A DNA stretch of 64,000 nt, from contig CAJINV010000001.1 of NCBI GenBank assembly GCA_905178155.1, forward strand, positions 13,328,635-13,392,634, written 5' to 3'. Shown here in pieces: positions 1-51,763 of the stretch. Positions within the stretch are counted from its first letter, which is position 1. Every line of letters starts with the position of its first letter. Under the pieces are notes generated by a model. It did not search any database. It was given only the letters and a program-made list of their open reading frames with translations, and was not told the origin of the DNA. Position numbers and translations under genes: made by a program. The stretch comes from Amoebophrya sp. A120. Lineage: Eukaryota; Protista; Dinoflagellata.

Positions 1-2960
1 GAACGCCATAGCACGGTAAACGTCCTTTGAATACGCCGTCCAGAAACAGCGCGGGGAAACCAACTCGACACCCTTGCCCGGTATGGAACTGTCAGGATCG
101 AAATCGACAAAATCGAAAAATTTGTAATGCGTGAAATGTAGAGCACGTATGGCCTGTGTTGGGGAGCAAGCAAATGAGACCGGTGGCAAGCCTGTTTAGG
201 GGAAGGCGTTGCGCTGCCAGAGTACCATGACAGGAGCAGTCTTCTTTGCCCAAACAGCATGACAGACTGGATTTTAGTGCTTCCGAAATTTGTCATGCGC
301 CACTTGGAAACTGAGGCTCCAACTGGTATCGATTTTATGCATCACAAGTTTTTCGATTTTGTCGATTTCGATTCTGACACTTCCATACCCGGACTTGGGT
401 TGTTAAAACCAATCACATACGCCGGATCCTGCAGGAGATAAACCTCGATTTCCTCGTCCGGACAGAACTGCTTGAAAGTATGGAGTCTGCGGTTGTTCAG
501 CGACCAGAGTGATCCGTCCTTCTCGTTTCGAATCACCCAGATTTTCGGAATGTCGCGCACCTGCGTGACGCCCTGGTCCAGCTCGTTCAAAGTCTGGTAG
601 ATGGACCGCCCGTCGTGGAATCGAGTCCGGATGCTGCCCTGCGTGAAGTTGATGTTTTTCGGTTTTTCCCAAATCACCACTTTGAGAACCTTCCTAACCG
701 GCGCCTTGTAGACCGGCGTGGGACTGAGCGACGCAGCGGCGGAACGCGCTCGTGAAGTAGAACGCCGCGGAGTTTGGAGCACTTGCAGTTCGGAAGATTT
801 CTTGTCGTCTGTGAGCGTTTCGTGGCCAGAGTTTTCTGCGATGCTGGCATCGGCCTTGTTTTCCTTCTCAACACGAAGCGCGATGTCGCTTTTCGTCACG
901 CGGAGCGCGTGGTCTTGCGGATCGGCTGTCCTGTTGCTTGTTTCCGGTTTCGTTTTGCTGACACCCTGCAATCGCAGTTGGTCCAAGACAGGCACAACCG
1001 GATTTGCTCGATACTGCTGATCGTTGAAGGCTGAGTGTCCCCCCTGCGACGTGATTCGGGACGCGGCCACCGGAACTTGGGCCTCTGGGGGAATGTGCGT
1101 CTGATGCGGCTGATACACAGCCGGGAGCGGTTTCATCTCGTCGCCTGCCATCAGGCTGCTGAGCATGGTGAACTGGGCAGGCTGCAGCGCACTCATCATG
1201 ATCCGGTTTTGCGTTGCAACCACCTGCGCACTCTGCGCACGCCGCATCTGCCGCTTCTTGGCCTCGACGTCGTCCTGCATCACTACTATATCACGGTTTT
1301 CGTCCGACTGCTCTTCTTCTGACGTCGTGTTCGGCGCGGTGGTTGTGCCATTCACACCCCCTCCCGCTTGTGCTGCTGAACTCGGTCGCAATGCAGATTG
1401 CCCTTGGACGTACGTATTTTGATGCTGGCTCACCATCTTGATGTGTTTCCAAGCAGTTTTGCTCTTGTCTTCTTTGGTTTTCGAAGGTGATGGCGCTGCA
1501 CTACCAGACGCTGAACTTGACGACACCGCCCCAGCAGACTGCGGTCGTGATTTCCGACCACCAGTAGACGCTGCGGGTCTACCCGTTGTCACAGACTGCC
1601 GCTTCAAGCTAGTACCGAGAAACAGGTCCGAGCTGTATCCAAGCGCTGCAAGTTTCTCTTCGGTGAAGGCGGCGATGGAAAAGTCCTCCTGCTCTAGGCT
1701 GCTGTGCTGCCTATCCTTATCGTTATTCCTCTCTCGCGTTGTCGTAACTTTCGTACCGTCCTGCCGCTCAATGACGTACTCTTCATCGGTCGGCGTTTCA
1801 TCGCTGACGGTCACGATTTCATCCGGAACCAAATCACTGTAGTCTGACGGAGAGGAGAGTGGCTTGTCCATGTTCGCAATATGAAGCGGAGTCGTCTGCG
1901 GCAAGCGCACCGTGCGCGGAAGCGCCGGGCGGGCAGACATCGCCTTTCGCTTTGAGTCGTTTTTTTTTGACGATGTTGCTGCATTCTTTTCAGCCCCTGG
2001 AGTAGTGCCACTTTCCGGGACGTTCCCACCGTTGGTCGTCGCTGCACTGGCTCCGATTTTATGGTCGTCATCCTCATTTTGCGTGTCGTCGTGAGATCGC
2101 TCTTCCGCATGTGCAGATGCTTTTGCGTTCACATCAGTTCCTCCAGAATTCCCTTTCATCTCCGGCCGCGGTTGCCACGTATCGGGCAACACCATGAGCA
2201 CCTCCCTGCCTGCGGACAACGCCCGTGCACGCGGCTGCGATGCAGTCCGTGGTGCGAACAAGCCGGTCGAAAAGCGCTGCGGCTCCGGGGTCGAACCTAT
2301 TCCCCCGTCAACAGCGGCTTCGTTGTTAAAAGACGGTCGTCGCGAGTTCGAACTGGTACGGGGCGTGGTCGGGGTCCGTGCCCGCCAAGTCTCTGCGGAA
2401 CCAACGGGTGCGACGCTCGGGCGGGTGGTCGAAGAGGTTTGTTGTCCTGCCGCCTGCCCCCTCGGGTCGCGCACAATCAAATCAGTGGTGGGTTTGTTCT
2501 TTACATCGAAGCTGTGCGAGAAGGTTTTTGCTGAAGAAGTTGAGGAAGCTCCAGCTGACATGTTGACCAATCCGACGCTTGCCTCCTCTTTTCTTGGCTT
2601 CATCAAAGCCTGCTCCGTCGCGGCGGCCTGCTGCTGGCGACGGGATATTGCGCGCTTCAGCATGATGGCGTCGTCTTCCAAAACCAGCGGCCCACCCTCA
2701 TCGAACAATAATCCCTTGGGTGCGGTCGCCCGCGCCAACGCAGAGACTGTGACCGTCTTCTCTTTGTTCGCAATGGTTCGGCTGTACAACCGGGTCGCCG
2801 CGCTTTTGGAACGGATGAAATGCCGACTGTCGGGGGAGCGGGACGTTAGTTGCGCGGTACTACGCAGGTTCGTCGCGTTCACGTTCAGATTCACGCACGG
2901 CATCGTTGGCGCTCGGGTGCCCACAATCAAGGGCTTCTTATTGGGGCTCGAGTATACCAT
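1..2960 (-). CDS. Large low-complexity protein with a ParB/Srx-like domain (3' end runs out of window); interrupted by introner E1
   Basis: 872-aa ORF 342..2960. Motif INFTQGSI..RF.DGRSI..T...L...IPKIWV...WSLNNRRL resembles ParB-like domains. Removing E1 plus one TSD continues the frame as NPSPG|KGVELVSPRCFWTAYSKDVYRAMAF to the window edge. Confidence 0.75.
82..387. mobile_element. Introner E1: 306-bp TIR element acting as a non-canonical intron
   Basis: Left end TATGGAACTGTCAGGATCGAAATCGACAAAATCGAAAAATTTGTAATGC pairs with right end GCATCACAAGTTTTTCGATTTTGTCGATTTCGATTCTGACACTTCCATA. Direct repeat CCCGG at 77-81 and 388-392. Confidence 0.9.
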
Positions 2961-3968
2961 GGTTTGGTCGAGAAGTTGAGCAGAGTAAGTAGTAGTTGTT
3001 ATTTTAGGCGTGCATTCGCATCGCGCTCCAGCAGTATCCCAATCAGAAAGTTAAGAACTGAATCCAAACCCGTAAAACGTATTGAAAAAAATCCCCATAC
3101 TGGATTTTCAGAAGCGAAGTCTCGTTTTCCTCTGTCAAAAAACCGCAGATGGGCCCTTTCTGCTTTGATACGGCAGACGAAAAAACGAAGATGAACATTG
3201 TTGTTGCGACGATTTTCTGTGAGATCTTCCTGTGATTCCAACAAAAAGTTTACCTTTTCCAGAATCCTAGAATCTCTACGAGAAAAACAGCAGCTGAAAC
3301 TGACAGACAGAAGGGCATCTGTGAAATCTTACTTTACGAAGCCCATCCACGACATGAAAAAAATATTTTCCCGACGATTTTGCACCACGAGATGATGATG
3401 AAACGAAAAAAAAACACGAAAGTAGTTCGAGCTGATCTTCAAAATTGCGTTCATTGTGGCAGCCCCTTCTACATGTAAAACACAAAAACGTCAAATACGC
3501 CAAACTGCACTTTTCTGTCTGACGGCCCGGCTCTTCTTTGAAACCGCAGAACCTTGCGCGTCTGCAATTGGCTCCACGCAAAACTGTTGACATAAATTTC
3601 GGCGGTCTCCACGATTTCGGTGTTACAATGTCGACATAGTTTCAAGTCGTTTCGAGGTATTCATCTTCAGAGAGGTCATAGGAAATTTTCAGTCTGTGCG
3701 ACGAAGGTAGTGAACCGTTTCATTTTGAATAAGTAACCATAGTTTGTGAATCTGCCTGCTTTGTGTACACAGATTTCTAATTTTTTGCTTCTGTCTGAAG
3801 ATAACTGTATCCAAGTTCGATTCGCTCTTGTTAGTGTTAGCTTGATCAACTAACTTTCTCTGTTTGTGAGTTGTTGAATCTCGGGTCTGTTAGTTAGAGT
3901 TAGTGTTAATGAAAACTGGTATATCATTGTGACATCATAGTACAAGGCCTCTCTTCTTTTTTCAGTAC

Positions 3969-6498
3969 CTACTCGTCCGCCGGCGGCGCCGGTTGACCAC
4001 CCGCGGGTGTGGGCTCGCTGCACTCCGGTAAGTCCTCCGGTTCGTTCAACACGGCGGGGGGCGCACAGTAAAAGAAGTTCGTGCTCCTCTTCAACCCATA
4101 GCCGACGTAGCTGTTTGCAAGAATGCAGGCGTTGGGTTTCGACAAGTGTTGCATGATAGATTCTCGTTGATTTGGATGAAAATAGAAGGAAAAAACAAGT
4201 TCACTCGAGCCGAAAAAAATCTTCTATCAGTACATGTTCACAAACGCCGATCCCTTGGAGACGCAGAAGGCACCGGGAAACTTGGAGGAGCGACAGCTGA
4301 CGACTGCGCCGGCATGCGAGCGGAAGGCCCAATCCTTTGACTTGACGCCACGGAGCTGTTCCTGCACGGGGTCCGACGCTTTCTTGGCTTCCTGAGCAGC
4401 GAACGCCTCTGGCTCCGCCTCGGCATCGATCTCCATGTAGGAGCAGCGACCCGTGCGGAGGATGTGCGGCACGCCTGATTCGGTTTTTGCATTAGATCAT
4501 TCTCGCTAATTGAATAGCCTTGTGAGGTCCTCGCACGAAATTTGATGTCACGAACTGAAACGCAGAACAAGTTCGTAAACTACTACGTCAAAGGTCTTCA
4601 TCACTCAGTACAGTGCATCCAGCCCTCTGGCTTGAGCAGTGTGCTCTGATCGGGAAAGACGAACTCCTCGGCTTCTGCGATGCTGCCGTCGTCCTCGCTG
4701 ACGGTCAAGTACCCCTTTACGTTCAGGACGGTATCCGCGGTAATTCTTGCGATCTGGGCGCGCAAGAGGAGTTTTTCCGGCGCGGCGAAGTAGGGGACCG
4801 TGACGACTGGGGCTATCAAATGCAAAAATGTCTGGGTCTGGAAGATTGCGAGTTTTGTCATGCTTGTCGGGCATGACCAAAAAGTTTGTGATGCGTGTCC
4901 AAGAAGAGACCCTTTCGCCTGTCATGCAAAAACGCAGTTTGTCATGCGAAAAACGCAACACAAAGAAGCGCAGATATTTCTCATGCTTGGTGGTGCATTA
5001 CAGAGCATTCACTGTTCCCAACGCAGCATTACAAGTTTCCAGACCCAGACATTTTTGCATTGGATAGGGGCCTCGAGGTCGCCGGTGAAAATTTTCTTCA
5101 ATCCTCGTGCGGCAACGATGCTCTCCGGGGTGGCGTCGGGTAATCGCACCCAGTATCAAAGAAAAAAAGTTCGTCACGATCACTCATGCGCATTCTTGCA
5201 ATACAAAATTGTTTGTCATGCGTAAAAATGCATCACAGCCAAACTTCATTAGGGATTTCCCTAGTGTTTCTGCAATACAAGGAAAGTTTGTGATGCTGAG
5301 AAAATTTGTAATGCAAAACCTGCAAGTTAGTGACTGTGACAAACTTTTTTCTCTCCATACCCAGTTCGGCGTTGTTACTGAGTTGGTCACCTGGGGAGTG
5401 AGTTTTGGATAATTTTTTTGTGTGATTTTCTTATCCTTGCACGATCGCAATATGTATATGACTCAAGAAGTACTAGTACCTACAAATAAGACATGAACTA
5501 TGAAATGGCTCGTCAAAAGATTTTCAAACCGGAAGCTAAACTATACCCAGTATGCGAACATGTTTGACCCACTCCCGAGTGGCTCAAAGCCTGGATTTTC
5601 TGGATCCTCCTCCCCAGCGGCATCCAACTGCCCCTCTGCAATGTAGTAATCAGCGCCGGAACCGCAAATCTTACCCCAGAATCGCACCTGTAATCATTTA
5701 TCGATGCATTTTTTTTGAATTGGCACCATCCAAACATTGCGCCGCGACTTGGAATTAAAAGAGATGGATCAGGGGAAATTCGTACCTTTTTCAACCCCTC
5801 TGTTGTTGCGGCAAAGTGCCTGAGACTGTTCATAACGGCATTGGCCTTTCCTGATGAAAACCCGACTCCCGCCCATGTCAGCACGTCATTCTCCTCCAAA
5901 AAGTTTGGCAGGGCGCAGATTGCTGTAAGAATGGAAATTTGAATTTCGTTCTCGTCGAGACACCATATATATTAGACACTTCAATAAACGCTAGTACACA
6001 AAAGCAGTCTACCTATCGAACCAGGAGAAAAACCGACAACACCAAAACGCTAAATTTTGCATAATTATACGCAGAAGCGCGCCCTCATCGTCTTTCGGGT
6101 CCGAGGCGACTTTCTTGACGGAGTCAACATCTTTGAGCTTCGAGGCAATCTCCTCCTCTGTGAGGGTGTGGTCGTAAGCTGATTTGGCCTTCGGTGGCGC
6201 GAGCTTCAGATTTCTTGAGTACACCTCAAGTGCATGGAACCTGCAAGAGAAAATAGAAACGTGCAGAGGCTTAGCCTTTTTTTAGCAGGGCGAGTCCTCT
6301 ACTAAAGCCAAGAACTGAACAAGAACATCTAGTCCTTCACATTATGCAGAGCGAGAGCACGCAAAGAGACGAAACTTTATCGTACGCTTTGTCCGCCGAT
6401 GGGTGGCCTGCGATCTTCTTCAGAAGCTCCTTCAAGTGCTTGGACACCCCGGGTCCCGCTGCCTTCAGCAGCTTCTCCGCGTCTACGACGTCGGGCAT
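3969..6498 (-). CDS. RSPH4: Flagellar radial spoke head protein RSP4/6 family (multi-exon)
   Basis: Spliced product contains VRFWGKI.G..ADYYIAEG, YWVTNS....WVRLPDATPESIVAARGLKKIFTGDLEAPV, LLRAQIARITADT, VVSCRSSKFPGA and IYVGYGLK. GT-AG introns (e.g. 5391..5546) plus introners E2 and E3. Confidence 0.9.
4814..5066. mobile_element. Introner E2 (family A): 253-bp TIR element in an RSP4/6 exon
   Basis: 30-bp TIR TATCAAATGCAAAAATGTCTGGGTCTGGAA / TTCCAGACCCAGACATTTTTGCATTGGATA. TSD GGGGC at 4809-4813 and 5067-5071. Excision joins GDLEAP|VVTVPYF; the unspliced frame hits TGA. Confidence 0.93.
5154..5359. mobile_element. Introner E3: 206-bp TIR element in an RSP4/6 exon
   Basis: Imperfect TIR TATCAAAGAAAAAAAGTTCGTCAC / GTGACAAACTTTTTTCTCTCCATA. 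TSD CCCAG at 5149-5153 and 5360-5364. Excision joins TTPNW|VRLPDATPE. Confidence 0.88.
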
Positions 6499-7099
6499 GA
6501 TTCTTTTTTCGCTGAAAAAACTCGACTTTTCAACACACGTCTTCCATTTCGGCTACGAATTCATTTTGAATCGAAGCTGAGTTCTTGTTCCCAGAGCACG
6601 AGTTTGCTGTAAAGACAAAGAGCGAGACGACAAGTTTCTCTTGCCCATGAGGAGTCGCACTCGTTTGCGCAGACATGAGGAACGCGATCAAAACGTCTCT
6701 CTACTCCAGTCTCTCTCCGTGGTCACTCCAGTGATGAAGACGGACCAAGTATTATTCAACACTTCTACCCTGATTCGAAAGTGTTCCAAAGTACTTTCTC
6801 CCTTAAGCTTACCAGCAGTTAGTTTTCAGTACGACTACGAATCTCAGCCCGAAACGTAAATAAACCTTGCTTTGTGCCCCTACACGTCGAACAAAGTGAA
6901 ACTCCGTACCATCTCCGAGATACCTTGCATGCATTGCAAATCCGTTTTCTTTTCGTTTCATTTCTGCGCCTTCTCGCTCGGGGTTTGTTTCTTTCATTCA
7001 GAACCAAAGTAGATTGGAAACATTCATAATTGTACATTGAGCGCCAGAAAACGTCAGAAAATGGGTCTGGCAAGGGCCTTCGTTCGTCTGCGAGCGAGT

Positions 7100-10109: not shown

Positions 10110-12347
10110 CTATCCCAGCGTCATCCATGGCGTCTTTTCGTTTTTCTGAACCTTTTTCAGAGCCTCTAGACTGGGTGGGGCGTTCATGTCAAGCCGTTTT
10201 ATTCGGTTTTCCTCCTCTATTCTCTGAAGCCTTCTTTCGGCGTTGCGCGCACCATGCTTCTTCCCGTGGAACTTCCAAGAGAGTTGCCTAAAGGCCTCTT
10301 TCGCCGTGTTCACGCGCCCAAACTCATCCTTATACTCGATCTTCACGTCGCCTTCGTTGGTTCCAATATCAAGCACGCCGCCCTCGGCGGTGTAGCGTTT
10401 CAGGTGTGAGCCTTGATCCTTGCCAAACCCGTCGCGCTCGCGTAAATATAGCAGGGCACTCGCCATACTGTTGTCCAAAGGCTTCTCGTGCAACTGCTCC
10501 TCCACGGCCTTCTGTTGCTGCTCTGAGACCACCGGCGCGCTGGAAGAGGAGCTGCTTTTGTGCTTCCTGGAATCGTTTATTCTCCGCTCGTTCGCGGCCT
10601 CGTCGTCGTGTAGTTTGAGCTTGTTCTCCCGCTCCTTCTTGAACCTGTGGATTGAATGTATTGCCATCAAGTTTGATCGGTAAATCGACTGAGCAGAACG
10701 CAAATCATGACAAGAAGCATAAATATGAAACGAAAGGAAAAAATCTAAAATTAATACGTTTCCATCCCCGCATAGGTTTCCTGCTTCGTCTTCTCCTCTT
10801 TCTGGTCGTGTGTCTGTACCGTGAGACAGAACTCGCTGGTCGCGCTGACCAACCGACTGTCTTTGTCCCTCGCCAGACCCGAGGATGCTACCAGAGCCTC
10901 TTCCGGTCGCAGCAGCTCCTGGACCTTTTTCAAGTCCCGTTTTGTCGTGGCGGCGGTCTTCTGCCGGCGGAGCTGCTCGTACAATTCCGGATCATCCTCG
11001 TCGCTGTCAACGTCGGCGCGGACCCTGAATTTCTGCATTTTCACCGGTGGTCGGTCAAACTCGTCCTCGTCGATGTTCAATTGCTTTCTTTTGTTTTGCT
11101 TCTTGGCCTGTTTCGCGATTTTTTTCCGGAATTTCACCTCTTCCGCCTGGTCCATGACGTCCGACTGGAATTTCAGTGTGCTGATTTCTCCGTCCGCCTG
11201 GTCGGCAAGTGCCATTTCCTTCAGTTTCTGCTCGGCCACGGCTGAGTGCGCGTCCGCCATCGTGAAACCAGTGGCGCGGGTGGGGAGCTCATCGTACTTC
11301 GCGAGGATGTCGCCGGTTTGCTGGTCACCGTGGTAGCCTCGGGAAGGGTCGTAGTTCGCTTTTTGCTTCTTCCGCTCTTCACGTTGTTTCTGTTTGGATC
11401 ATCGATCGTTTTGGAGCGCTAAAATTAATCGAGCGGCGCTGCAGAGACACAGAATTTGAGTCAATCTGTTGCTGCTGAAAAGTGCACTTTACTTTTTGTT
11501 TTTTTCACCAGGCAACCATCAAACCAAATAGAAATACCAGTTTAAACGCGTCAGTCTTGTTAATGTCTTCCAGCAGATCCATCTCGCTGTTCAGGGTGCC
11601 GTCGAGGGTTACTATCCTTTCGTCCGCAAGCGTCAGAATCGCCTGCTCGCCCTCCTGGAAATCCGCCATGTCGTGCGTCACCTGAGAATCGATCATGAAT
11701 CAACTCTAATATGCGTTGTCGTCCTTTTTCCCGTTCAGTTAAAGAAAATCGAAGAAAAACAATTCATTATCATTGTCAGAAGCAGAACGCCAAACAAAAA
11801 GCTGAAAGAAAATACCCTGAAGTTATCCAACGACGGTCCGTCTCCCGCCTCCTCTTTTTGCTTGGTCGCACGGTTCTTCGCCGCGGCGCGCTCGAGGTTC
11901 CGCGAGCTTGTCGTGTGGTGGCTGCTGGCCCATGCCTGCAAATCATCGTCATCGTCCAGGATGTCGCCGAGACCGCGACCGCTTGCAAGTTTGGCCCGCT
12001 CCCTGTTGAGAGATTTTGGTTCGCAATGAATCTTCATTTTCTACCGCAGAAAGAAATGGATTCAGTTTCGGCTCGTCACAACACGTACACAGCTAAACAA
12101 AGTAAATTCGCAAGAGCAAAAAAATGTACCTCTTCCTCTTGTCCTGCTGCTTCGCGGCGACTGCATCGTGTTTTGCGGCGTCCTTCTTCGCTTTTTCTGC
12201 CCAGTGGTCTAATGGTGCGTCCGAGGTTCCGTCTACCGCTTTGCCGTCTTCTTCTATTCGGAGAGGTTTTAGACCGAGTTTCCTACGCTCCTCGTTCCAT
12301 TCGGCAACGGTCTTGGTGACCTCCTGGGCACCGTCTGTCGATGCCAT
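10110..12347 (-). CDS. SART1: U4/U6.U5 tri-snRNP protein SART1/Snu66
   Basis: N-terminal HIND-like motif TVAEWNEERRKLGLKPL, VTHDMADFQEGEQAILTLAD, and C-terminal EYKDEFGRVNTAKEAFRQLSWKFHG. Four GT-AG introns traced. Confidence 0.9.
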
Positions 12348-15949: not shown

Positions 15950-18900
15950 TTATGTGCTAGCCTGATGCACTACAACCTTCACTTCCTTATCGTACGGCTC
16001 CTCCCTCTGGTGCACGTCCAGCAAGCTCAAGTACTTTGTCAACACCTGAAAATTTACCCGCAAACCCTCCGGGTTGTCTATCACGGAGCTACTGCTCGTT
16101 TCTATGAAACCGATCACTTGCACGTCGTGCCCGAATTCCTGTAGCATCCGCACGTACCGGATACTCCCGCCAATCGCGTGGGGATGTGACGCACCATACA
16201 GCTCCCTCGTCGCCTGTATCAAACCGCGATGCGGAGCACTTCGCGGATTACAGACAAAACCCTCGTACACGTCCGCTTCTCTCCGGTCGAAGATCCAGTG
16301 GAAATCCAAGCGGCCGAGTTTATTTGCCAGAGGTGCCGTGTCGGCGGTGCCATAAAGGGAGTATTTGGAATACGGACCGCGGGCGGGAAGCCGGTCCACG
16401 TGCTCGTTGAGGAGAGCGACCGCGCTTTCGAGCTGTTTTTTTTGTACATGAAAGGCACTCTACTCGCAGTCGCATCTTCAAAATGCCATGCATAGATATA
16501 ATTGACTTTGAATGCATGCCGATTGTATCAAACATGTGCAGTACTGTACCTTTCTCCTCGCTTCCTCTGGCCTTACGAACGGAGACAACCGAACGTCCCC
16601 AACCGCCGTGCAGTGCCCTGGTATCGTGTCACCACCTCCGTCGCAGCTGATTTGTGTAGGCTTCATGGTGCTCGAAACTTCAAACCCGTGCCGCCTGTCC
16701 TGCACCTGCGTTCCCTGCGTCATTTCGCGGTAGAACGTCCCTTGCAACCGGTCGAGCGCCGCCGTCAGCAACTCGAGCGCGTTGATACCCTGCTGCGGCT
16801 GCCCAGAGCCCGCGAGCTGCCCGAAAACCCCAAGTTTCCAGAACAGCGCAGACGTGGAGCCGCAAACTGGATGGCCGCCGGACCCTTGGAGGTAGAGAAC
16901 AGAACGGAGGTCGGAAAGGAGGCCGTCTGGGGGGTTTGTTGATTTTGAATGTGATCTTCAGACAACTTCGTCATCTTTTCATTCTCCTCACGACGGAGTG
17001 CAATTACCTCTTTTCCTTTTGGTGCAAGAAAAACCAAGCTAAGAATCATACCTTCCAGCATCCTGTCCACGCCAACGTCTCTACTGGCACTGTCCGGACT
17101 AAAAACCACTACGACGTCGCTTTGCAGAGCGGGTTTTTCCGCTGCGAACACTTCTAAAAGGCCAACCAGCAGTGCAACATGGAGCAGCTCAGGCGGAATC
17201 GCGGAGTGCTTGTCGTCGCTATGGGAGGATGAAGAGCCTCCGCTACTTCGTTGTAGTTTATCCACCGCTTCCCGCAGACTCTCGCCGATAGGGAAAAGAG
17301 TGAGAAATCCGACCGGCGCAAGCTTCTTGCTGGTCGTTGTGGAGCTCGTGGAGTAGGTTATTCGCAAATTTGCGAGTGGGCTTATTGGCTGGTCAGAAGT
17401 AGACTGATGTGCTGGCACCGCTTTATCAGTGCTTCTACCGTTTCCGTAGTCGAGAACATCAACCGTCAACCGGCGGGAGTACAGCTTCTCGACGTAGGAC
17501 TTGATCACGGTAGGTAGTGCTGGCAGGGCAGCAGCTGCAAGCTGCGCTGCTGGTGGCGCTGCCGCGCCGGAAGAAGCAGCCGCACTGCCCGAGCTCGTTG
17601 TCGCGGCGTCAGTGGGCTGCTCTACTGCACTTGCACTAGCGGCAGGACTATCCGAAGCATCTGCTATTCTGGATGCTAGATTAGTTTCTATCGCTTCCAA
17701 GAAATTTTGTGCGGATTTGAGAATCGAAAACCTTCTTGCTCGCACGCTATCCATCGGTGACGGGTGTAGAGAAGCGTAATCTGGAACGAGTGAAAGGCTC
17801 CCGTCGAGTAGAGGCTTGACTGGCTTCAATGGTTTCGAAGCGACCGGCTCTTGCTCCTCCTAATGTGAATGTTGAGTATCTATGTACTTAAATGCTTTTT
17901 TTTCCCTTTGCTTTACATGCCTCATCTTCGTGTCGTGTACCAACCAAACAAAAAATCATGTGCGCAGCATCAGCATGCTCGCTTACCTCCTGGTCCCACA
18001 GTTGAAATCGCTGCTCCCCTGCGTTTGTCAACTGTAAAAATGTCTGTGTCTGGAATCAATGTCATGCTGATTTTGAATTGTAAAAAAAATCTGTATTGCT
18101 TGAGCAGCAAAGAGAGTCCAAGTTTTGCTACACGGAAAGAGCATTTGTCATGCAGTATAGGCATCAGGAAGCCCTCACAAAATCTGTGATGCTAGGGCAT
18201 GCATCACAGACATCAGGAGTCATGCAAAATGTGCATGACAAACCTAGGGCCATCAGGAGTCATGCAAAATGTGCATGACAAACCTTCGTCGATCGATTGT
18301 GCCACTAGGGCCTTGTGTTCTGGCTACTCCGGATCGCAATCGATGGAGGGCGGGACCTGCACCGGCGACAGGCGCTACCCAACCAACCAACCAACCAAGC
18401 CTGGCAATCTTCCAGACCCAGACATTTTTACATTTGATAGCGTTTGTCTGGTGGTATAACGACGGACGGTTCCCTCCAAACGCAGACCCGGAAGACTTGA
18501 AAATATGCGGCAGCCCGATCGTCGACCCATCGGATCGGTAGGAGGATTTCTTCCGCGGCTGCTTCGTTGGGGAGTGTTCCTCCTGCCAGTACTCCACAAG
18601 CAAGACCAGCAGCGCAAACGCGATCGCTATGACCAAAAACGATACGAGCAGGCATCGCCAGGAGCAAAAACAATAGTTGCCGTCCGCCCGTCTGTCACCC
18701 CGGCGCGAGAACCCCGACCGCGGCCCGGATCTGCTTTCCGTCCCAGGCCGCCCGCCGGGGTCGTCGACCGTGACGGAGCGGTTCTGCTTGTTTCCGTCTA
18801 TCCCAGTTAGTTGCGTGTCCAAGCCGATCAGCTCCTGCGTGAAAACCGGTTCTTGCCGCTGTAGTTGTTGACCCCCACTGATTACACTGTCCTCAGGGGG

Positions 18901-19098: not shown

Positions 19099-19580
19099 GA
19101 TCGCATTGATTGCCTACGTGGCGTCGTGCTCGTCTTTCTTTGTGTGCTTGTCTTCTCGAGCTATCGCACTAAACCAAGATCATATTCAAAAACAATCGGT
19201 AAGGCCGCGATACCAAGACAGATCTACTTGTACTTCTATGTACGAGACAAAAAAAAATTACGAAGCGTGCTTATGAAATAAAGCGAAAGAAACAGAAAGC
19301 AAGATAGTGCCGCACGACAGCAACACGGTCACGGCACTACAGATTGCATGAGGCACGAGACAAAGAGTCGCATCGAACAGATCCCGCATCTCCACTATCC
19401 CGAAAACCGTGCGTGGCGCCGACAACTGAACTGTGTCATGATGTGCAGCACCGAATCGGTGCGATGAGTATTTGTGTGAAACAGGGAACCACGTGACACG
19501 TGTAGTCCCGTGGTTTTTGTGTGCATTCGGTTGTAAAAGGATGAAACTGCGAGGTCGTGAAGCATTTCTGCCATGTTCAT

Positions 19581-23507: not shown

Positions 23508-25490
23508 TCATGCGCGTTGTCTACCGACTCCACCAGCAGCCGCCACAGATCCGTACACTTTCTGGATGATGATGCTGTCGAATGGTAGGTCGTATGTGCT
23601 TTGCCCGAAAATACACCTCTCCGGCATGCACACCTCAACGACGCCGTAGTACAGGCCTCGTGTTTTCAACCTCAACATCTCGAGACACCGCTCCCAACCC
23701 GGGCAGGTCGCGGAGGCGTATGTCGTCGGGGAAGCCACATGCCAGCCAATGACCACCTTCTCCCGCGCAACCCGGACCATCTGGTGCAGAATGTCGCACT
23801 GCGCTGTCGGTTCAAAGTGATACAATGCGCCGTAGCTCAGCACGTGAGTAAAGCTGTTCGATGGTAGGTGGCTCAGATCCGCGCCGTTGTCTTGGCAGAA
23901 CCGAACGGTCGCAGCAGTCTCGGCTGGCGGGTTCGTTGCCGTCGAAAGCAAAGGTTGCTTGAAGAACTGCTGTTCGGCCCAAACCGTGCGGTCCGAAGGA
24001 TCATTAACCCCTTCCGCAGACACTGCAGTTGCTGCTTTTCCTTTCACCCATCGTCCCTCGTAGTGCTTCTGCGCACTAGTCGCCGCCCCGAGCACGGGCT
24101 CGATCCCCAGACCGGAAACGCCGTAGCTTCCAGCCAAGTATGCCAACTGGTGACCGCACCCGCTGCCCCAATCCAGCACACTCGTCGTTTCGTCCATGTG
24201 CAGAAATTCCGCAAGCGAGTCCAGAACGCAGCGCACCACTGGTCGGGTGTCGTGGCTCCACAGTCCCAAAGGCGTGTCGCAGCCCATCGTGGAGTTCAAC
24301 TTTAGTTGAATACTGCTTCCGTTGAACCGATGTTCGTACGTGTCGTGCGGTAGATAAATCGTGTAGTTGCCGGAACTCGCGGAGCGGTCGTGTAGGACGA
24401 AAAACGACCTGAACCGACCGGCTTGCATGTCGTAATCGTAGTTGACGTTTTTGGTTTTGTCACTGGCTCCGAGGCTGTCAAGTTGAATCGCCGCAGAAGT
24501 TGAACGACCAGCAAGAATTTGCCCGTTCTCATCATCTTCGTTCCCGTCCGTTCTTGCAACGACGCGGTATATCGGCAGTTCGCGCGGGAGCCCCGTGGCC
24601 ATCGACACTTCTATCGTTTTCGTCACTTTGGAGCGTATCGGATTAATCACCGCGTAAATATCCGCCTCGACAGAAACGTCAATGTGGTCTTCTGGGCGGT
24701 GATTCCAAGGTCTACAGCGGTAGTTGTCCAAATCCATGTTTACGACCGGATGCTTTTGCTGCGCAATCGAGCTGCGTAGAGGCAGATACGTCTTGCTCTG
24801 CGGAGGGAAGTAGTTGGGTGGAGATATGCGCGGACGGTGGCGCTGACTTGCCTTGGTTTGAGACACCGATGGGTGAGTCAGAGTGGTAGCGCGCTCGTGC
24901 GACGCCGCGCAAGCCGACTTAAGCGCCGCCGTCTCCCTCTGGACCAAGTCTTTTCCATATTCCGGCTGCAGAGTCTCCAGTGTCCTTCCCGCATCAAGCA
25001 TGTCTGAAGACATCGTCTGTTCCAGGCCTCTTCTTGGAAGGACATACTCCATGCGGAAGGGCCAGGTGAACTGCTTTTCGTACAGGGCCGGGTCTTGACA
25101 GAGGTTTTCCATACCCGCGCCATCCCGTAGGTAGCTTCGCTTTACAAAGCGGTCGAACGCGAAAACGCGCATTGAGGACGTGGCGTTCTCATAGTAGACT
25201 GGCACTTTGTTATGCGACCTACTGCACTCCCGCCGAAACCAATCCTGCCACACCAGGGGGGTGCGATCGAAAAACTGCCACGGTCGGCGGCACGACGTCG
25301 GTGTTTCCACCCCGTGCCAGTGCGATACCTCCTCCGCATCGTATTCCTTGAGTCTTTCCAGCACGCGCGCAATCTTCTCAGCGTCATCTTCATCTGCACA
25401 GACCGGTAAGAGCAGTCTGCTCACGAAAACGAGCAGTGCAGACAAAAGGGCAAAGCCTGAAGAGTGACGGTGGCATGGTGAGGCCAACAT
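23508..25490 (-). CDS. Class I SAM-dependent methyltransferase with an N-terminal signal/anchor
   Basis: Motif I VLDWGSGCG, then GLGIEP and FTHVLSYGALYH. Hydrophobic FALLSALLVFVSRLLLPVCA near the chosen start. The ORF is open to 25802. Confidence 0.75.
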   Translation of the reverse strand: MLASPCHRHSSGFALLSALLVFVSRLLLPVCADEDDAEKIARVLERLKEYDAEEVSHWHGVETPTSCRRPWQFFDRTPLVWQDWFRRECSRSHNKVPVYYENATSSMRVFAFDRFVKRSYLRDGAGMENLCQDPALYEKQFTWPFRMEYVLPRRGLEQTMSSDMLDAGRTLETLQPEYGKDLVQRETAALKSACAASHERATTLTHPSVSQTKASQRHRPRISPPNYFPPQSKTYLPLRSSIAQQKHPVVNMDLDNYRCRPWNHRPEDHIDVSVEADIYAVINPIRSKVTKTIEVSMATGLPRELPIYRVVARTDGNEDDENGQILAGRSTSAAIQLDSLGASDKTKNVNYDYDMQAGRFRSFFVLHDRSASSGNYTIYLPHDTYEHRFNGSSIQLKLNSTMGCDTPLGLWSHDTRPVVRCVLDSLAEFLHMDETTSVLDWGSGCGHQLAYLAGSYGVSGLGIEPVLGAATSAQKHYEGRWVKGKAATAVSAEGVNDPSDRTVWAEQQFFKQPLLSTATNPPAETAATVRFCQDNGADLSHLPSNSFTHVLSYGALYHFEPTAQCDILHQMVRVAREKVVIGWHVASPTTYASATCPGWERCLEMLRLKTRGLYYGVVEVCMPERCIFGQSTYDLPFDSIIIQKVYGSVAAAGGVGRQRA

Positions 25491-26386
25491 TTGTTTTGAT
25501 TGTTGATTTGGAGCGGCACCGGGCGCATTTTTTTCCAGAGCGTGCGATAGCGCAAATGCTGTGTCGAGATCTCTCAAGGAACCGCCCGTAGCCTGATCCT
25601 TGCGCTTTGTCGGCGAAAAGATTCTTGACGCAACAAAAATTCCGAGTTCGCCACAAAGTGGCACGAGGGACTGGTTCCCGCTGGTAAGATTCTTGCTTTT
25701 GATCTTTAAAACTCTCTGATCAGCATGGCATTGCATGTTCGTGGTGGGTGTCACCCACGACGAACATGCAACCTGTTTTCTGAACGCTTGCAAGTGCAAC
25801 AAGTAGGATGCAGCGTTTTAGGTATCGCGTCACGGAGGAGGAGGCACAGAGGAGGAGGACAGGGATGAGAACCCTGATACGTGCAAGATTACGTATGGTG
25901 ATAGGCAGCGGCTGCTGTTTTGTGTTTCTTTGTCATGTTTGACAATGAATTTCCCTTGGTCTCAACCACGTCCGCGGGGTACATTGAAGCGAATGAAAAT
26001 GTGTGCGGAATACGACATAGAGAAGATTGCAGCGAGTGTACAAGTAAACCAACTGAATGGGGTACCGCTCCCGCGGATACGCTTTTACATGGACTTTTGC
26101 ACCTGCACGCAGCGCCAAGAAGGGCAGATGAAAAGGATTATGCAAGGCAGAAATAGGTGTGACAACGAGTTGTTTCATTCAGATTTATGGGTCATTATTT
26201 CGTAGGCGTAGTTGCAAGCTGATAGTAGGGAAAATTTCAGCTAGTGGAAGTGCAGATAATTGTCAACCAACAAGTATTTTCACAAATTATGGAATTCTTC
26301 CTCCAGCAGCTTTGTTGAGTCATGGGGGTGTAGTTGATGATCAAAAACTAGTATTGGCTTCCTAACTAACCGGACTTGCCATCCAG

Positions 26387-41516: not shown

Positions 41517-41753
41517 TCTTCTACTCTTGGGCTTTCTTCAAGAAGGATTTGGTTCTTCTACCTCGCTAGGCCTAATGCTTGGAACCTCGAGGCGCCCTTC
41601 ACAAGAGAACTTCTGTGGTAGTAGAGTACCTTCAGAGAAAACGGCTTTAGTACCAACTGCCACCAAGCAACGCATTAGTAGCTACACGACGCCTCCAAAC
41701 CGCGCCAGATGAACACCATCGCAGCTTCTTTCCGCCATATAATTAGATCTTCC

Positions 41754-43109
41754 TCATCTTTTGTTGAGTCGCTGCCGCTGTGCGTTCGTCAGCTTTTCGC
41801 TCTTTCTATCATTGGTAAAGAGGGGCGACGATGGCGCTCCCACATCTCGTCTCGTACCTGGCAAAAGAACATTTTTCCAGCGTGCCACTAGCCCTCGATC
41901 GCGTGTACGGATGGAGTGCGCTCCACCATGTGAGAGAATGGTGGAACGAGAGGTGTCCGCCACAGGAGAACTCGAAACCAAACCTCCATCGGAGATGCTG
42001 GGTGGAGCTGTGTCCGCGTCATTCGCAGTTCCTTCGAATTTGTTCAAGGTCTCAAAGGCTGCTACTGGTGGTCGCGCATCACTTCTAGTACTCTTCAGCC
42101 CGTCCTGATTTGGAGGCAGCTCTCGTGGCTCGTCCGCAACAGCACCAGCCGCAAATTCGTGTGCTCGTTCACTATTCCGACGGAGCAGGCGAAACTTCCA
42201 GAGCAGGAATTTCTGCCGCACGTCTTCCCAAGTCGAAACCGCGGATTTCCGCAAGCCCCGAAGGTCAAGGAGTGGTAGCAATTCTAGCAGCATGTTGCTG
42301 GACTGGGAAAACAACAGCATGAGACACATGTGTTCCTGCGCCATGAGCCGCTTTGCGCCCACCTGCAGGGGCACGAAGGAGATCCGCAGTATTGCGTGCG
42401 CCGGCGTTACATACTTGACGAGGTTCGCAACAAACAGCCAGGAGTAGACAAAAGAAGCCGCCTCTGCCCAGTCCTTGAGTTTGGACACCAACATGCGTCG
42501 CTGAAACTCCCGCTCTTCTTCATCCTCAATCTCGGGAAGAGCAACCGTTTCCTCTGTCGATTCGTTCGCAAATTCCACATGCTCCTCATCATCGCCTTCC
42601 GGGGCCTTTTCTGCTCGTGGTCCGCCAGTCAGCATTCTCTTAAGAGATCGATAGCGCATCAAAACCTCACTCCAAACCGCCTTGCGCTGCAGCGAATAGA
42701 AAACTTTCGTCCCGATGTCAAGCAGAGTTTCCACAGGAAGCAGCGTCAGCAGCAAAAACGCAACGCGTTGCGGTTTCGTCAGGTCTAATGAATTGGGTGC
42801 GTCGACGCCTTTCATCCGTAGCGAAGGGCCTTCGTCTGTTTCGCTCGGCGGTAAGGAAAGCAATTTTCTCACGAATCGCTCCCTTGCCGCCAGCGCGCGT
42901 CCGTCCGCGTGCACCAGATTTTGCAACCGCATGCCGGGTGTGGGCTTCCCACGCCACACAGTGAGATACCAGATGATAAAGCGCACAAGCGTCAGACCCC
43001 AGGTTTCATCGATCGGAGCCCGTAGCAAGTCTTGGCAGCTCCGGAATATGATGCGGGCGATGTTGGCCTCCATCTGGAGACTGTCCAGCTGCGAGGCACG
43101 AAGCACCAT
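41754..43109 (-). CDS. PEX2: Peroxin-2-like protein (Pex2/Pex12 N-terminal domain)
   Basis: VLRASQLDSLQME and TVWRGKPTPGMRLQNL match PEX2 signatures (RVxQLD; TxGxxLQNL). No RING finger seen. Confidence 0.7.
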   Translation of the reverse strand: MVLRASQLDSLQMEANIARIIFRSCQDLLRAPIDETWGLTLVRFIIWYLTVWRGKPTPGMRLQNLVHADGRALAARERFVRKLLSLPPSETDEGPSLRMKGVDAPNSLDLTKPQRVAFLLLTLLPVETLLDIGTKVFYSLQRKAVWSEVLMRYRSLKRMLTGGPRAEKAPEGDDEEHVEFANESTEETVALPEIEDEEEREFQRRMLVSKLKDWAEAASFVYSWLFVANLVKYVTPAHAILRISFVPLQVGAKRLMAQEHMCLMLLFSQSSNMLLELLPLLDLRGLRKSAVSTWEDVRQKFLLWKFRLLRRNSERAHEFAAGAVADEPRELPPNQDGLKSTRSDARPPVAAFETLNKFEGTANDADTAPPSISDGGLVSSSPVADTSRSTILSHGGAHSIRTRDRGLVARWKNVLLPGTRRDVGAPSSPLFTNDRKSEKLTNAQRQRLNKR

Positions 43110-44349
43110 GGTTTTCAAAAAAATATTGACGTACAAATAAGTATCTTCGTTGGGGTGCTGTCCGGGTCCGAAACGATCTGCATACTAAGTGGATTTGTAG
43201 TCTTTTCGACACACTAAAACCAAGATGGAAGACACGGCGTCGACACCTGATCCAAAAAAGGATCCGAAGGACAAAAATCGCGAATCGCAAACAACTTACT
43301 AAAGTTAGTACTTACTGCTTGAGCACATGAGATCCAATGCTGCGCCGCCGGTGCTGCGTCGATCTTCCGGGAGTAAGGTCAGAAAGCCCGAACCTGTTGT
43401 ACAAAGCTGGAACAGAGGGACAGGGCGGGCGCTTAATGGCCTGCTCTAATGCCAACGAATCGGGTCTAGATGTGTTTTCTCTTTTTGCAGTTTTGTTTCG
43501 CCGCTGTCTCATGCGTCAGTTCCTTGTGCAAAAGGTCCAAATCTTTTCAGAGTCGCGATAAGGGATCTAACGCGGAGGTTTGAACTACAAAGCAAAAGAC
43601 ACAGCTCGCCGTCAGGGGAAAGAAAAAAAAGTCCGCTCAGTAAAAATACGGAGTAAAAACAGGTGCCTATTGTGACTAGAGGTACTTACATCGTGGGGTG
43701 CAGTTTCTACAGCTACAAGGGAGCCCGATTTCACTACAAGTTTTACTTGGGGTCGTTTTTACAAAGACGAAAAGATTCAGCTGAAGAAGATGGCTTTATC
43801 CTGAGCGCGTCTTCTGGTTTTGTTTTTGTTCGGGAAGGGTCAATAATAAATTCGAGTTCTGGAGGCCTTGGAAGGCAGTAAAAGTGTGGTATCATGTGAC
43901 AGTTCTGCAAGAACTAGTTTGTCATCGTTGCAATCCACAAAGCGAAATCGTATTCATAGGTGTGTGTATAGACAAGCGCACGACGCTTGTCTTGGGAATG
44001 CACAGGATAAAGTTCGAAAAGATTTGCTGCCAGGTCGTCGCAAAGACAACCCAAATCTAGTACGCAGAGCGCATCTGAAGTGCAGCTGCAGCGTAGTACT
44101 GTAGGTGTACGAAAGACGAGATGATGAAGCTTGAGAATCAACACGATTCACTGCGTCTCCTGGCATGCAGGGCAGTAAGGACATGGAATCCGTGCTGTTG
44201 TCTAGTGTCACAAAAGTTCAAATCATGTACAGGTGCATATCTTTTACCGAGTTTCGGTATGTGAATCTTCTTCCACCGGAAGTTAGTGCGTTAGCGTTGG
44301 CGCGTCACCCCATGATTAGCACTGCATTTTGTTTCTTACTCCTGGTTCG

Positions 44350-47300: not shown

Positions 47301-47873
47301 GAATGAACTAAAGTACCTCGCGGAGCAGCCTCAATGTGTCTTCCCAGTCGTCCGCGCTCTTCGTTATTTTTATGCGCTTGACCGCGACGCAATCGTAGGT
47401 AGCAAGCGATGGGTTTTTCCCTCCCGGAAGGACCTGGGCCCGCGCCACCGTTCCAAAGCCGCCCTCTGCAAGAAACTCGGGTTTACTCAACATGCCCTGC
47501 GGCAGCTCGAAAACCCCGTGTTTCTGCAGGTCGTACTTTTGCATTGGCTGTGGGTTCAGCGTCTTTGGGCACAACACCCCCGTCTGAACGGCCCGTTTCA
47601 CAACTTTGCGCAATGCTCCTTCGTCCAAAACATCGGAGAGCTGAGAGGAGGCTGTTTTGTTGATACAGTTTGCCGTTGGAGAAAGCAAAAACAGTTTCAT
47701 CGTCTTCAGCAGCTGAAAAACAGTTCCGCAAGGCACGATCCTGGTAGTAAGACCAGGCAAATTCGAAAGAGGCAGCTGTATCATAGCTAAAGGATTTACT
47801 TGTTACCTGGTGGCATCGGCTGGGTGCTTTGCGTGTTAGCAGGCACCCCCTGGAGTCGTGCTCCGGCGACCAT
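44350..47873 (-). CDS. CMGC/MAPK-like Ser/Thr protein kinase with a long disordered tail (multi-exon)
   Basis: LAEGGFGTV, VAVKRI, LRLLREVHFLKYLRHPNI, DYVYLVMP, HRDVKRENI, LADMGMAR, GTRCYLAPEML, DVFGLGCVL and YDPKKRWTAEQLLQHEW. GT-AG introns. Confidence 0.88.
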
Positions 47874-49147
47874 TTTCTTAGTTTTGGATGCTATAGCTTT
47901 TGACGGGTCAACTTTTGTTTTGATTTCGGTACTTTACAGGTTTATGTCTTCGCGATGCATATTTGAGGCCTCAGGAGGTCGCCGCAACACAATTTGTCAC
48001 GCGGCAATGACTGAGGTACAGACGAAGCAGCAACAGGCCGTGCGTATTGGTATTACTAACTTAATTTTGGGGATAAGAACAAAAGCAGCTCCTCAACAAA
48101 CACACTATGATTGATTCATGTGAAAGCACATAATTAATGTAGAATCGATGCCTTGTGGCGACCAGCATTCATCAAAAAAATCAGTTCACAAACTTGCGTA
48201 CTCAAGTTCAACTACACGGAAGGCACAAACAAAAGTAGTCCGTCTGTCAACAACTTGTTGCATTAAGTAGTTTGCATTTTTATCGAGGTTGCGAGTCAGC
48301 AGTTTTGAAATAAAGAAGCATCCGCTTCTTCACCTTTGCAGCCACTTTGACAAGAATCGAGACGACAACGAACAGAGGTTCAAGACGCTTATGGAACTTC
48401 CTTTCACGAAAAACACATTTTCCAACCGTTTTGTTTGTCATCTCATCACGAAGAAGTGTATAGAATGCTCCATCTGTCTACCAACACAGCAGCTGTCGTT
48501 GACAATCAGATTTTTTTCTTGCGAAAAAAAATGAACATCAAATCGCTCCTTGTTCTATTGTGGTAAGTACTATGCCAGACCTCAGAATGCGGGTGAACAT
48601 ATTTTCTTTGCTCACGGTTTCTTTGTCAATCTGCATGGCGCTTCTTCCATCACGCTTTCACGTGCTCCTTGCAAACCAACTTCGAACCAAAGAAACGAAC
48701 CACGACAACATGCACCACATACTTCATCAAAAAAGGCAAAGCAGGAGCTTGCACGAGAAAAAGCAAGACAGAAGGAAGAACTTTCCTGGATCAGTCAGAA
48801 ACTCACACGCTTTGAAGACCACATCTATGCGCTCCACATTAAGGCCAGGTGAAGGGCGAGAGCTGCATCTAATTGACACTGTTGTTTCTCGTCTTCTTGA
48901 TCTTCTTTCGCGCAGACACAAACGCGCTGACTTTCTTTGGGCTTCTCTCCTGATCTTTCAAACGGTTGCGTCAACGCCTCTGCGCGCGTACAGTAGGTAC
49001 GCGCTTTCTGTCGCACATCACAATAACAGGCTGGCTCTTGTTCATTTTTGTGCCGCCTCTACTCGCTAGGTTGCGAGGAACAATAGTTCGGCAATCACTA
49101 AATCGTATGCTTCGAGGTACAACCTCTGCACTAGATGTCTATGTCAT

Positions 49148-51763
49148 TTATGGTTTTGGCTTTTTTGGGGGCCTTTGGAGTATCGTCTCGTCAACCTTCT
49201 TCACACTGCGTTCGGCGTCTCTTTTGAAAACAAAGACATCCTCTCCTATGCACGGTCCTGAGCCAGCTTGGTTTGAGATACACTCCGCAGTCCGTCGGTC
49301 GCGCGTGTCTTCGAGCGCGGCGCGCAGGACAGGAATCGCGCCGATGCGTCCTTCCCGAACGGCAAAAAACCGCGCGAAACGAAACATTCCGGAAATAGCG
49401 GCGGAGAACATACCGAAGATTCTACCCGACATCAGATACCCTGCAGCTTCTGCGAGCGCCGCACGCGTGAAGCTGGTGACGCCTTGCTGTTGACTGTCAT
49501 CGAGACCGCCGCCCTCCGCTACGAAATGGAGAAGCGCTCCAATCTCTCCGTATCCTGGTTTCACAGCGACCTGCTGCCAAAAAGTAGCCTGCAAAAAATC
49601 CCAGGCGGGAATGCCCAAAGGCTTCCCGTCCGACAGGCTGCACACCGCCCTGGGCTGCATTTCCTGTTTCCTTGTTATCGTCCCGTTTTTCGCGGTCGTT
49701 TCGGTCGTCACCCGCAGAGCGGGGCTGACGAAGCCCGGACCGGAGCTGAGTTCCATCCAAACGGACCGCCGGTAGTCCCAGCTCTGAAAGAGCTCGTCCA
49801 GAATGTAGCAGGTGTCCAGTGCGTGATCCGGGACGATCTGGTAGCGCCCATTTTTCCCCGTCTGCCCGGCGTTGTACTCTTTCTTCTCGAAGAGCATGTA
49901 GCCGAACCAGGAGTGGAACAGCTGCTCCAGATCGACGTCCGTCGGCCCCCGCGAGACTTTTCGGCCAGGCTCCCCCAGTAACGGACACACTTGTGCCGCG
50001 TGCGAAGTGACCACAACAGTGTGGAGTTTCGCATTGTGGTTTTTCTCAATGTACCGCTGCAGGTACCGCTCCGCACCGTAGGTCCTCTGGAAGGTTTCGC
50101 CAGGGTTACGGAAAAAGGATGTGGAGGAATCTTCGTGGCGTGGGCCCAGCGGGTAATTTTGGAACACCGCGGTCTTGATCAGAATGTCCACACGGAAATC
50201 GTCCATGCTTTTCACCACGTCGCTAATCTGAAGATTTTTACTTTGGCTTCGATTTTTCTCAACGGGCTATGAAAACCGGTCACCAGGATCAGTTGTACTG
50301 CTACAAAGACAATGAATGAAATGAATTCATTAGCTTTAAACGAGGTAGCTCGGAGCATCAGGTTTTCTGCTACTAAGCATGTACTCGCTGGTAATCTTCC
50401 TCTGCTCCAAAATCGTAGATAAAGCACTTCAGGCGTGTGAAATCGGGGCGAAGAATTGTGTGGATAATGGAGTCACACGCCGTCATCGAAGGCACGCCAA
50501 GGTAGAGCATTTTTGCACGCCCCCACTCAGATAACCATTTGGCCGTGTGGTAGCCCACACCGTGCGTTGCGTCAGTGACCAAGATATTGCGGCCCTGTAG
50601 TTGTTCGATAAATTCTTCTCGAACGATCATGCCGATTCTAAAAATCTTCTTGACATTTTCTGATTTGACAGAGAGGGATTCCATAGTGTAACGAAAAACA
50701 ACATACAACAGTACAACTTACGCCGAATTTCTGGTGCGTTTCATCGTAGGTTTCCAGAAACGCTTCTTCCAACGGCCTGTCCAGCACGGTTTGGGCAGCA
50801 AAGGTGAGCGCGATGGGTACCACTACAGCCGTCCAGTAGAGGAATCCTATGACGAACGAGCCCCGACACGCGATGTTTTTGACCGTCAGCTTTTTCTCAT
50901 TGGGCACGAGGTCCTGTGGCCGCAAAAGCAACGCCTTCACGTTGTGCGTTTTGGACATGTAAATTTCCGCTTCGAGTTCGCCCTTCCACCAACAATAGCT
51001 GGAGTAGTAATTCCACATGAAGGACACAACCACGACCGCGACGATAACACCGAGAGTACCCTGTGCCGTTTTGTCGACCGCCAGCGCATCGTCCGGGCGA
51101 CCAACTTGCACGTCCCGATTCCCGAAGTAGTGCTGGACAATGGCCACGTAGTAGTCAGGTCCGCGGAGAAACACAAAATACCCGACGGAGGCGAACAGCA
51201 ACGCGAGGTGCCGGGAGAGCCAAATCAGGTCGAAAAAGCACCGGAAATGACCGTCGCCAACGAGCACGAGGAAAAACGTGAAAAACAGCGTGAACAGGAA
51301 GCCAAGCATGAAATCGCCGAACCCCTACCAAATGCAAAAATGTCTGGGTCTGGAAAAATTCACGTTTGTCATGCTTGTCTGGCGTGACTCTTAAATCTGT
51401 CATGCACGTTCCCAAGAGCTCCGTTTTTCTGTGATGCAGAGGCACAGTTTGTCATGCAGAATAGGCAACACCTAGGAGCTCAGAAACTTGTCGTGCTGAG
51501 CCAGCATTCGTAGCCTCATCATGAGACGCTACCCAGCATCACAAGTTTCCAGACCCAGACATTTTTACTTTTGATAACCCCACACGCCAGACGAAATCCG
51601 GAGTAGCGTCCAGGACTGCCGCCGCCGCCGGCTGCCTTTTCGCCTGCGCAAGTAGGGAGTCCACCTGCTCTGGTAACGCGGAGAGCCGCTCGAGCAGCTG
51701 CTCCGACAAACCATTCAGGCTCAGCATCGGCGGCGCGCTGTTGGAACCGGTATCCAGTCCCAT
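49148..51763 (-). CDS. Multi-pass membrane protein with an SDR/Rossmann-like domain; contains introner E5
   Basis: Several hydrophobic helices in 50750-51309. GRNILVTDATHGVGYHTAKWL resembles the SDR Gly motif. E5 removal joins FVWRVG|FGDFMLGFLF. Confidence 0.65.
51326..51576. mobile_element. Introner E5 (family A): 251-bp TIR element
   Basis: TIR TACCAAATGCAAAAATGTCTGGGTCTGGAAA / TTTCCAGACCCAGACATTTTTACTTTTGATA. TSD ACCCC at 51321-51325 and 51577-51581. Colinear with E2. Confidence 0.93.

Follow-up and report, generated by a model that had tools for sequence, protein, structure and literature searches.

An iterated box with fixed geometry in the introners of Amoebophrya sp. A120, a probable subterminal DNA site for a shared transposase

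Five introner elements (E1-E5) lie in a 64,000-nt stretch of the Amoebophrya sp. A120 genome (GenBank assembly GCA_905178155.1, contig CAJINV010000001.1, positions 13,328,635 to 13,392,634 of the forward strand; hereafter the window), and all five carry copies of a short sequence box that is real, under selection, and set at fixed distances from the element ends. The box is probably an iterated subterminal DNA site, predicted from sequence to be bound by a shared transposase or by its cofactor. The elements themselves are already known, since their end logo and direct repeats match those of A120 introners, whose inverted repeats have been described as opening with TAT, followed by seven looser bases and then by a run of A, together with 3-5 nt direct repeats (PMC7789003; here and below, published accounts are cited from the excerpts of their texts that were available). 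Introners have been published as making up 17% of the A120 assembly, with 29,850 copies in 1,954 families, and both their spread and their splicing were given as open questions (PMC7789003). The box and its spacing are apparently new: no description of either was found in the literature texts searched, although the figures of the main A120 papers may show one. The available passages of PMC11282704 held no description of the box, and a term search of the available text of PMC13149111 gave 0 matches.

Abundance of the box inside and outside the elements

Across 734 instances, the core TGT(C/G/A)ATGC was invariant and was preceded by two pyrimidines, and these usually by a purine and AA. The window held 27 copies of the core, 25 of them inside the five elements (1,430 bp) and 2 in the remaining 62.6 kb, while Markov shuffles gave an expectation of 6.3 copies for the whole window; the full 10-mer occurred 13 times compared with 0.5 expected. 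Ten GT-AG introns with RNA support (1,314 bp) contained no copy, which bears out the statement in a preliminary description of this DNA that the box is almost absent elsewhere. That description had listed 11 plus-strand copies of TTTGT(C/G/A)ATGC and seven inverted ones (located at 257, 339, 5026, 5230, 18233, 18273, and 51536), all of which were recovered, but it had overlooked seven further core copies (4920, 4995, 18060, 18185, 18201, 51398, and 51430), the reason being that the two bases ahead of the core are pyrimidines without always being TT. Its term 'internal' needs correction for the E1 copies at 121 and 339, which sit in long inverted arms (77-160 and 309-392) and are thus partly the terminal inverted repeat (TIR) itself rather than independent internal copies.

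A second, public assembly was scanned with the TIR of family A, to which three of the window elements belong, and this returned at least 151 loci (256 kb, named L001-L151). The similarity of the listed loci to the window was confined to the elements. Elements were called from their ends and duplications without using the box, resulting in 222 elements, a Markov control yielding 4 weak ones; 220 were kept, 216 from the listed loci and 4 from the window. Family A accounted for 132 of the 220 because its TIR was the seed, and the remainder were bystanders in the flanks. Among the matches listed, the core was present in 213 of the 216 elements from the second assembly. Its density was 12.8 per kb in the elements (715 copies in 55.8 kb) and 0.26 per kb in the masked background (42 copies in 160.6 kb), so the motif is by no means equally frequent in background sequence. 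The box was also found in all 17 end-sequence groups, as expected from the preliminary claim that unlike TIR families have it in common. When the ends of the 12 multi-member subfamilies were trimmed and their boxes masked, only five short shared matches of 14-26 nt were left. The 5-bp duplication was exact in 191 of 246 elements that had been found without using the duplication.

Conservation of the box and timing of selection

Conservation was measured as departure from the consensus in split-half family alignments, with seven fixed box positions scored. In the six largest subfamilies, departure was 3.8-5.5% in the box compared with 24-28% in the interior, 6-15% in the TIR, and 12-37% at the degenerate position, and the box is thus clearly more conserved than its flanks. 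A TAT followed by an A-run is common to the ends of all families, which therefore probably descend from one ancestor, and the box could in principle be a neutral relic of that ancestry or of copying between elements. I regard this as very improbable, because divergence of the box was five- to six-fold below that of the flanks within families while one position varied freely, and because spacing was kept where spacer sequence was not; the conservation in family alignments rules out a neutral relic unless the sampling was badly biased.

The distribution of changes gave an indication of when selection acted. In the 231 of 246 elements with at most two duplication mismatches (15 were dropped), divergence between the paired duplications was 4.07%. 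Within the two largest subfamilies, the box and the interior had similar levels of rare alleles (1.7% and 1.5-1.9%), whereas common alleles stood at 2-3% in the box and 22% in the interior; for the smaller subfamilies, a lower rate was obtained in the boxes. Trees of four subfamilies (159 elements) placed box changes on terminal and internal branches in a ratio of 117:24, compared with 1628:854 for the interior (p 9e-6), and the terminal-branch rate of the box was 2.4%, near half of the duplication divergence. The evidence leans towards selection on the box during spread, followed by drift after insertion. The neutral rate was bounded at about 2-4%, and it may be nearer the upper figure because one copy of each duplication is exonic. 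The terminal TAT departed from consensus at 0.7-1.5% per position, less than half of the duplication divergence, which may reflect host selection or ascertainment.

Geometry of the box array

Boxes less than 60 nt from an element end pointed inward in 276 cases and outward in 63, and the start of the first box clustered at 33-34 and at 41-45 bp from the end. Of 121 pairs of neighbouring boxes on the same strand, 39 had a spacing of 31-33 bp, compared with a null mean of 4.3 and a maximum of 14 in 5,000 draws, this count being taken over 36 subfamily representatives, of which some singletons derive from family A. The 31-33 bp unit was present in 11 of the 12 multi-member subfamilies with unrelated spacer sequences. 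Opposite-strand boxes peaked at +47/48, and weaker inverted half-sites lay downstream with a peak at a 6-8 bp spacer (7 bp in 11 subfamilies). A conserved motif was therefore found in a fixed place and orientation near the ends, as is characteristic of subterminal transposase-binding repeats. B-DNA has about 10.5 bp per turn, so that the offsets of ~33 and ~43 bp differ by one turn and the 31-33 bp spacing corresponds to three turns, which suggests proteins bound to one face of duplex DNA.

Orientation of the box and alternatives at the RNA level

Orientation relative to transcription was assigned with a codon-aware strand classifier that made no wrong calls in window cross-validation (for 1.5-kb chunks, 36 of 40 were right and 4 uncalled) and that superseded an earlier classifier, ~85-90% right on long chunks. 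It agreed with the strand of Pfam matches at 8 of the 9 loci that had them; the locus that disagreed, L062, was excluded from the same-locus pair count given below. A strand could be called for 120 of the 216 elements. Here, the family orientation was sense in 61 and antisense in 59, the boxes themselves were divided 210:185, and 16 elements lacked any exact sense box while another count of 16 lacked an antisense copy. Pairs of the same subfamily at one locus, which can be compared without any classifier, had the same orientation in 8 cases and the opposite orientation in 7.

The preliminary description had offered, as its second option, an RNA-binding protein that reads the box on single-stranded pre-mRNA, and it had named strand bias as a sign of such a role. 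The bias to the transcribed strand expected of a single-strand splicing enhancer was absent from both the classifier-based counts and the same-locus pairs. An RBFOX-like reading of the box as GCAUG was also considered, but 44% of the boxes break GCATG at the degenerate position. One small high-confidence subset of 24 elements did lean towards sense (16:8), and all three asymmetric elements of the window favour one strand. Despite these exceptions, a single-strand RNA mark is largely refuted and now hardly credible.

A signal that is functional in either orientation could be provided by RNA if the box acted in splicing within double-stranded stems or small hairpins. The predicted element folds were strong, with z-scores of -6.2 (E5, which forms one long hairpin) and -7.7. 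Box bases were paired more often than interior bases in predicted RNA folds (0.75-0.82 versus 0.60), 153 of 383 boxes paired with an opposite copy, and the inverted half-sites could form small hairpins across their 6-8 nt spacers. The absence of any GT-AG reading from the window elements (see below) would likewise agree with an unusual splicing signal. However, no box was paired with an exact opposite copy in three subfamilies (0/37, 0/8, and 0/5), and in the largest of these the box was still conserved, at 5.2% departure compared with 24.4%. The degenerate letters of the two terminal boxes agreed no more than by chance (32 of 104, null 30.9), albeit in a weak test in which only 1 of 6 TIR columns showed agreement. 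Moreover, boxes set three turns apart by spacers of unconstrained sequence are what B-DNA would favour, and a signal in RNA duplexes is therefore quite unlikely.

A probable shared mobilisation system

The first part of the preliminary interpretation, an iterated site for one factor, has stood up well, because all 17 end-sequence groups share the box, the box is more conserved than its flanks, and its geometry is fixed; of the two options proposed there for this factor, the transposase-type DNA site is favoured, while the single-strand RNA mark failed on strand. In the mechanism that would best explain these data, the double-stranded box would be bound by a transposase or a dedicated cofactor that mobilises otherwise unlike families. 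Several protein subunits might assemble along one side of the helix and bring both element ends together, and the catalytic core would cut at the TAT end that the families share. Spread would be limited to copies whose boxes are intact, and boxes would drift once inserted. The enzyme may be an integrase-like DDE transposase, for example of the type of A120 family 38, and splicing would depend on the terminal hairpin for guidance and not on the box. Family 38 has been listed as Ginger-like, with '5-bp TSD, TA/TA Termini' (TSD, target-site duplication) and an integrase-like open reading frame (ORF; PMC12130899, supplementary file 8), and its enzyme is the best candidate class for mobilisation.

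Several observations weigh against a transposase site. No transposase was detected with Pfam in 20 window ORFs or in the 150 that were scanned of 202 locus ORFs, and the available text of PMC7789003 reports none for A120 and disputes that a transposase mediated the spread. A large number of boxes are located 100-200 bp into the elements, and several families have boxes in one direction only, so the arrangement is less symmetric than that of typical transposon ends. The two smallest aligned subfamilies (n=5 each) showed a weaker contrast in conservation (11.4% and 8.7% in the box compared with 18% and 23%). Weak host selection would also skew box changes towards terminal branches, and a neutral rate nearer 4% would leave room for such selection on the box. 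The pairing of boxes in predicted RNA folds and the sense-leaning subset described above are to be counted on the same side.

Part of this evidence could be accommodated by a host DNA-binding protein that binds the box and aids transposition, marks the DNA for co-transcriptional removal of hairpin introns, or both. Such a protein would account for the same signs at the DNA level (spacing and unbiased orientation) and for a single motif across unlike TIRs, and it would fit the reports that A120 has no transposase and that U1 small nuclear RNA was undetected there (PMC7789003). Set against this, host DNA showed no excess of the motif (2 copies in 62.6 kb, with 6.3 expected for the whole window), its decay on terminal branches was close to the rate derived from duplications, and its position was tied to the cut ends. 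I therefore consider a host protein unlikely, and a transposase or its cofactor remains the preferred binder of the box.

A motif that is near-universal and fixed in its geometry speaks for one mobilisation system common to the families. In practical terms, the box offers a short and specific bait for the missing protein, with the degenerate position as a built-in control, and a signature for locating autonomous elements and diverged introners. A bolder proposal, which on present evidence is rather improbable, is that all A120-type introner families, irrespective of TIR, are one system in which a single integrase-like protein reads the helically phased box array, and that the same DNA-bound factor may flag the element for hairpin-guided excision from nascent RNA, in an organism in which U1 small nuclear RNA went undetected. 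If this were true, transposition and splicing would depend on a single code in the DNA.

Removal of the elements from RNA

Transcript-type contigs were taken from sequencing runs presumed to be RNA, all from one sample, in which ordinary GT-AG introns were also skipped. E2 was skipped as 258 nt (253+5) and E3 as 211 nt (206+5), both in run X3, and all 4 runs examined for E4 skipped 419 nt (414+5). In each case, the element and one duplication were removed, which restored the pre-insertion sequence. Direct splicing evidence was limited to these three elements; for E1, a transcript-type contig piece begins at 388. Sliding of the cut point gave no GT-AG reading for any of the five window elements, and E2, E3, and E4 are therefore removed from mature RNA in the non-canonical manner of A120-type introners. 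The left end of E4 (TGT) makes a mismatch in the terminal RNA stem; the element was nonetheless skipped exactly. With the box no longer favoured as a mark on the RNA, attention in the question of splicing turns to the terminal hairpin and away from a sequence mark. An open frame across the junctions was kept after shifts of 0, 1, and 2 in 72, 66, and 63 of 157 cases, which does not discriminate between them.

Partial reads from the raw RNA runs X9 (101) and X10 (3) all fell on elements and were uninformative for splicing. At 18406-18439, the match of run X9 was confined to element ends, with a different interior and different flanks, so that family-A ends are also present in another strain, or another copy, filed under this species label. 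At 19441, transcript contigs carry an untemplated T run, which fits a poly(A) site belonging to the gene above it.

Relation to known systems

The elements resemble A120 introners in having TAT, seven bases and an A-run at their ends, short direct repeats, lengths of 200-400 bp, and removal without GT-AG (PMC7789003), and the published family lengths of 149, 208-214, 252-260, 278-279, 305, and 321 bp (PMC12130899) match subfamilies found here. In contrast to the available published accounts, which describe only the ends, the present data add an internal motif with fixed offsets and 31-33 bp spacing.

A close parallel in arrangement is the Emigrant element of Arabidopsis, a miniature inverted-repeat transposable element that is likewise non-autonomous and has repeated internal motifs beside its ends, which are bound cooperatively by Lemi1 proteins (PMC1636448). 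Emigrant is, however, one pogo-like family with demonstrated binding, whereas the present motif extends over many TIR groups, occurs in elements that are introns, and is predicted to be bound. TA..TA termini and an integrase-like candidate enzyme class are shared with IS3EU and GingerRoot (PMC10045372, PMC6839031). The elements were not filed under these groups because the duplication there is usually 6 bp, in contrast to the 5 bp found here, where RNA skips the element plus 5; a term search of the available GingerRoot text (PMC6839031) found no subterminal repeats. No autonomous element turned up in the DNA analysed. The multi-site ends of IS21 (PMC11208146) are similar in their 5-bp duplication and in having several direct repeats per end that load extra transposase subunits. 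IS21-type elements are bacterial and autonomous, whereas here a core of 8-10 bp recurs at three-turn spacing and also deep inside the elements. Mu and Tn7 have comparable multi-site ends, and the repeats at the ends of IS21, Mu, and Tn7 are longer and abut one another.

Elements of the window and neighbouring sequence

The coordinates of the five elements and their box cores are collected in Table 1. All are flanked by an exact 5-bp target duplication and have the layout TA(T/C)...ATA, with the exception of E4, which starts with TGT; E4 and E5 (TAC) thus have one altered end each. The inverted repeats begin with TAT, seven looser bases, and at least three A, the group of E1 having TCAGG instead of the A-run. 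Like A120-type introners, the elements are repeated across the genome: the summed contig depth in DNA run X1 was ~45 for unique DNA compared with 8,800-250,000 for bins with elements, figures that do not represent copy number. The host gene of E2 and E3 contains six ordinary GT-AG introns, all without the box.

Table 1. Introner elements, box cores and host gene in the window (positions are those of the window; + and - give the strand).
Feature	Position	Strand	Description	Remarks
E1	82..387		306-bp TAT..ATA element	duplication CCCGG at 77-81 and 388-392
E1 cores	123+, 257-, 291+, 339-			outer pair 42 bp from respective ends
E2	4814..5066		253-bp family-A element	duplication GGGGC
E2 cores	4856+, 4887+, 4920+, 4940+, 4995-, 5026-			offsets 43, 74, 107 (31/33-bp steps)
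E3	5154..5359		206-bp element, TIR group other than family A	duplication CCCAG
E3 cores	5214+, 5230-, 5289+, 5307+			5214 and 5230 inverted relative to each other across an 8-bp spacer
E4	18026..18439		414-bp family-A element, left end TGT	duplication GCGTT
E4 cores	18060+, 18146+, 18185+, 18201-, 18233-, 18273-
E5	51326..51576		251-bp family-A element	duplication ACCCC
E5 cores	51367+, 51398+, 51430+, 51450+, 51536-			offsets 42, 73, 105
Box example	121..130	+	consensus RAAYYTGT(C/G/A)ATGC
Host gene of E2 and E3	3714..6384	-		extent is the part covered by transcript contig

Internally, E4 has a duplication of 40 bp as well as ~140 bp of unrelated DNA that includes a CCAA run. In the second assembly, the gene for the largest subunit of RNA polymerase II (L074-L076) contains a 262-bp and a 972-bp element, the latter with ~700 bp of interior of unrecognised origin, and removal of the elements in silico restored conserved RNA polymerase II motifs. 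The ORFs within the 972-bp element and within a 631-bp element were short, and inspection by eye recognised none of them. Across loci L001-L151, the duplications were T-poor at positions 2-5 on the inferred sense strand, which may simply reflect exon composition.

A search of the window with Rfam gave 0 matches, and viral contigs gave 0 matches to the TIR and 0 to the three-box pattern. A 20-bp inverted repeat (95%, 1-nt loop) at 25731-25771, close to the 5' end of one of the long ORFs, has no box and is not a TAT element. The longest ORFs of the window are all on the minus strand, and Pfam matches were obtained for SART-1 (10110-10991), a methyltransferase (23508-25817), Pex2/Pex12 (41754-43184), and a PALP-family enzyme (62150-63538). 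For the cysteine synthase of the window, the best named relative came from Amoebophrya sp. A25, at 50% identity.

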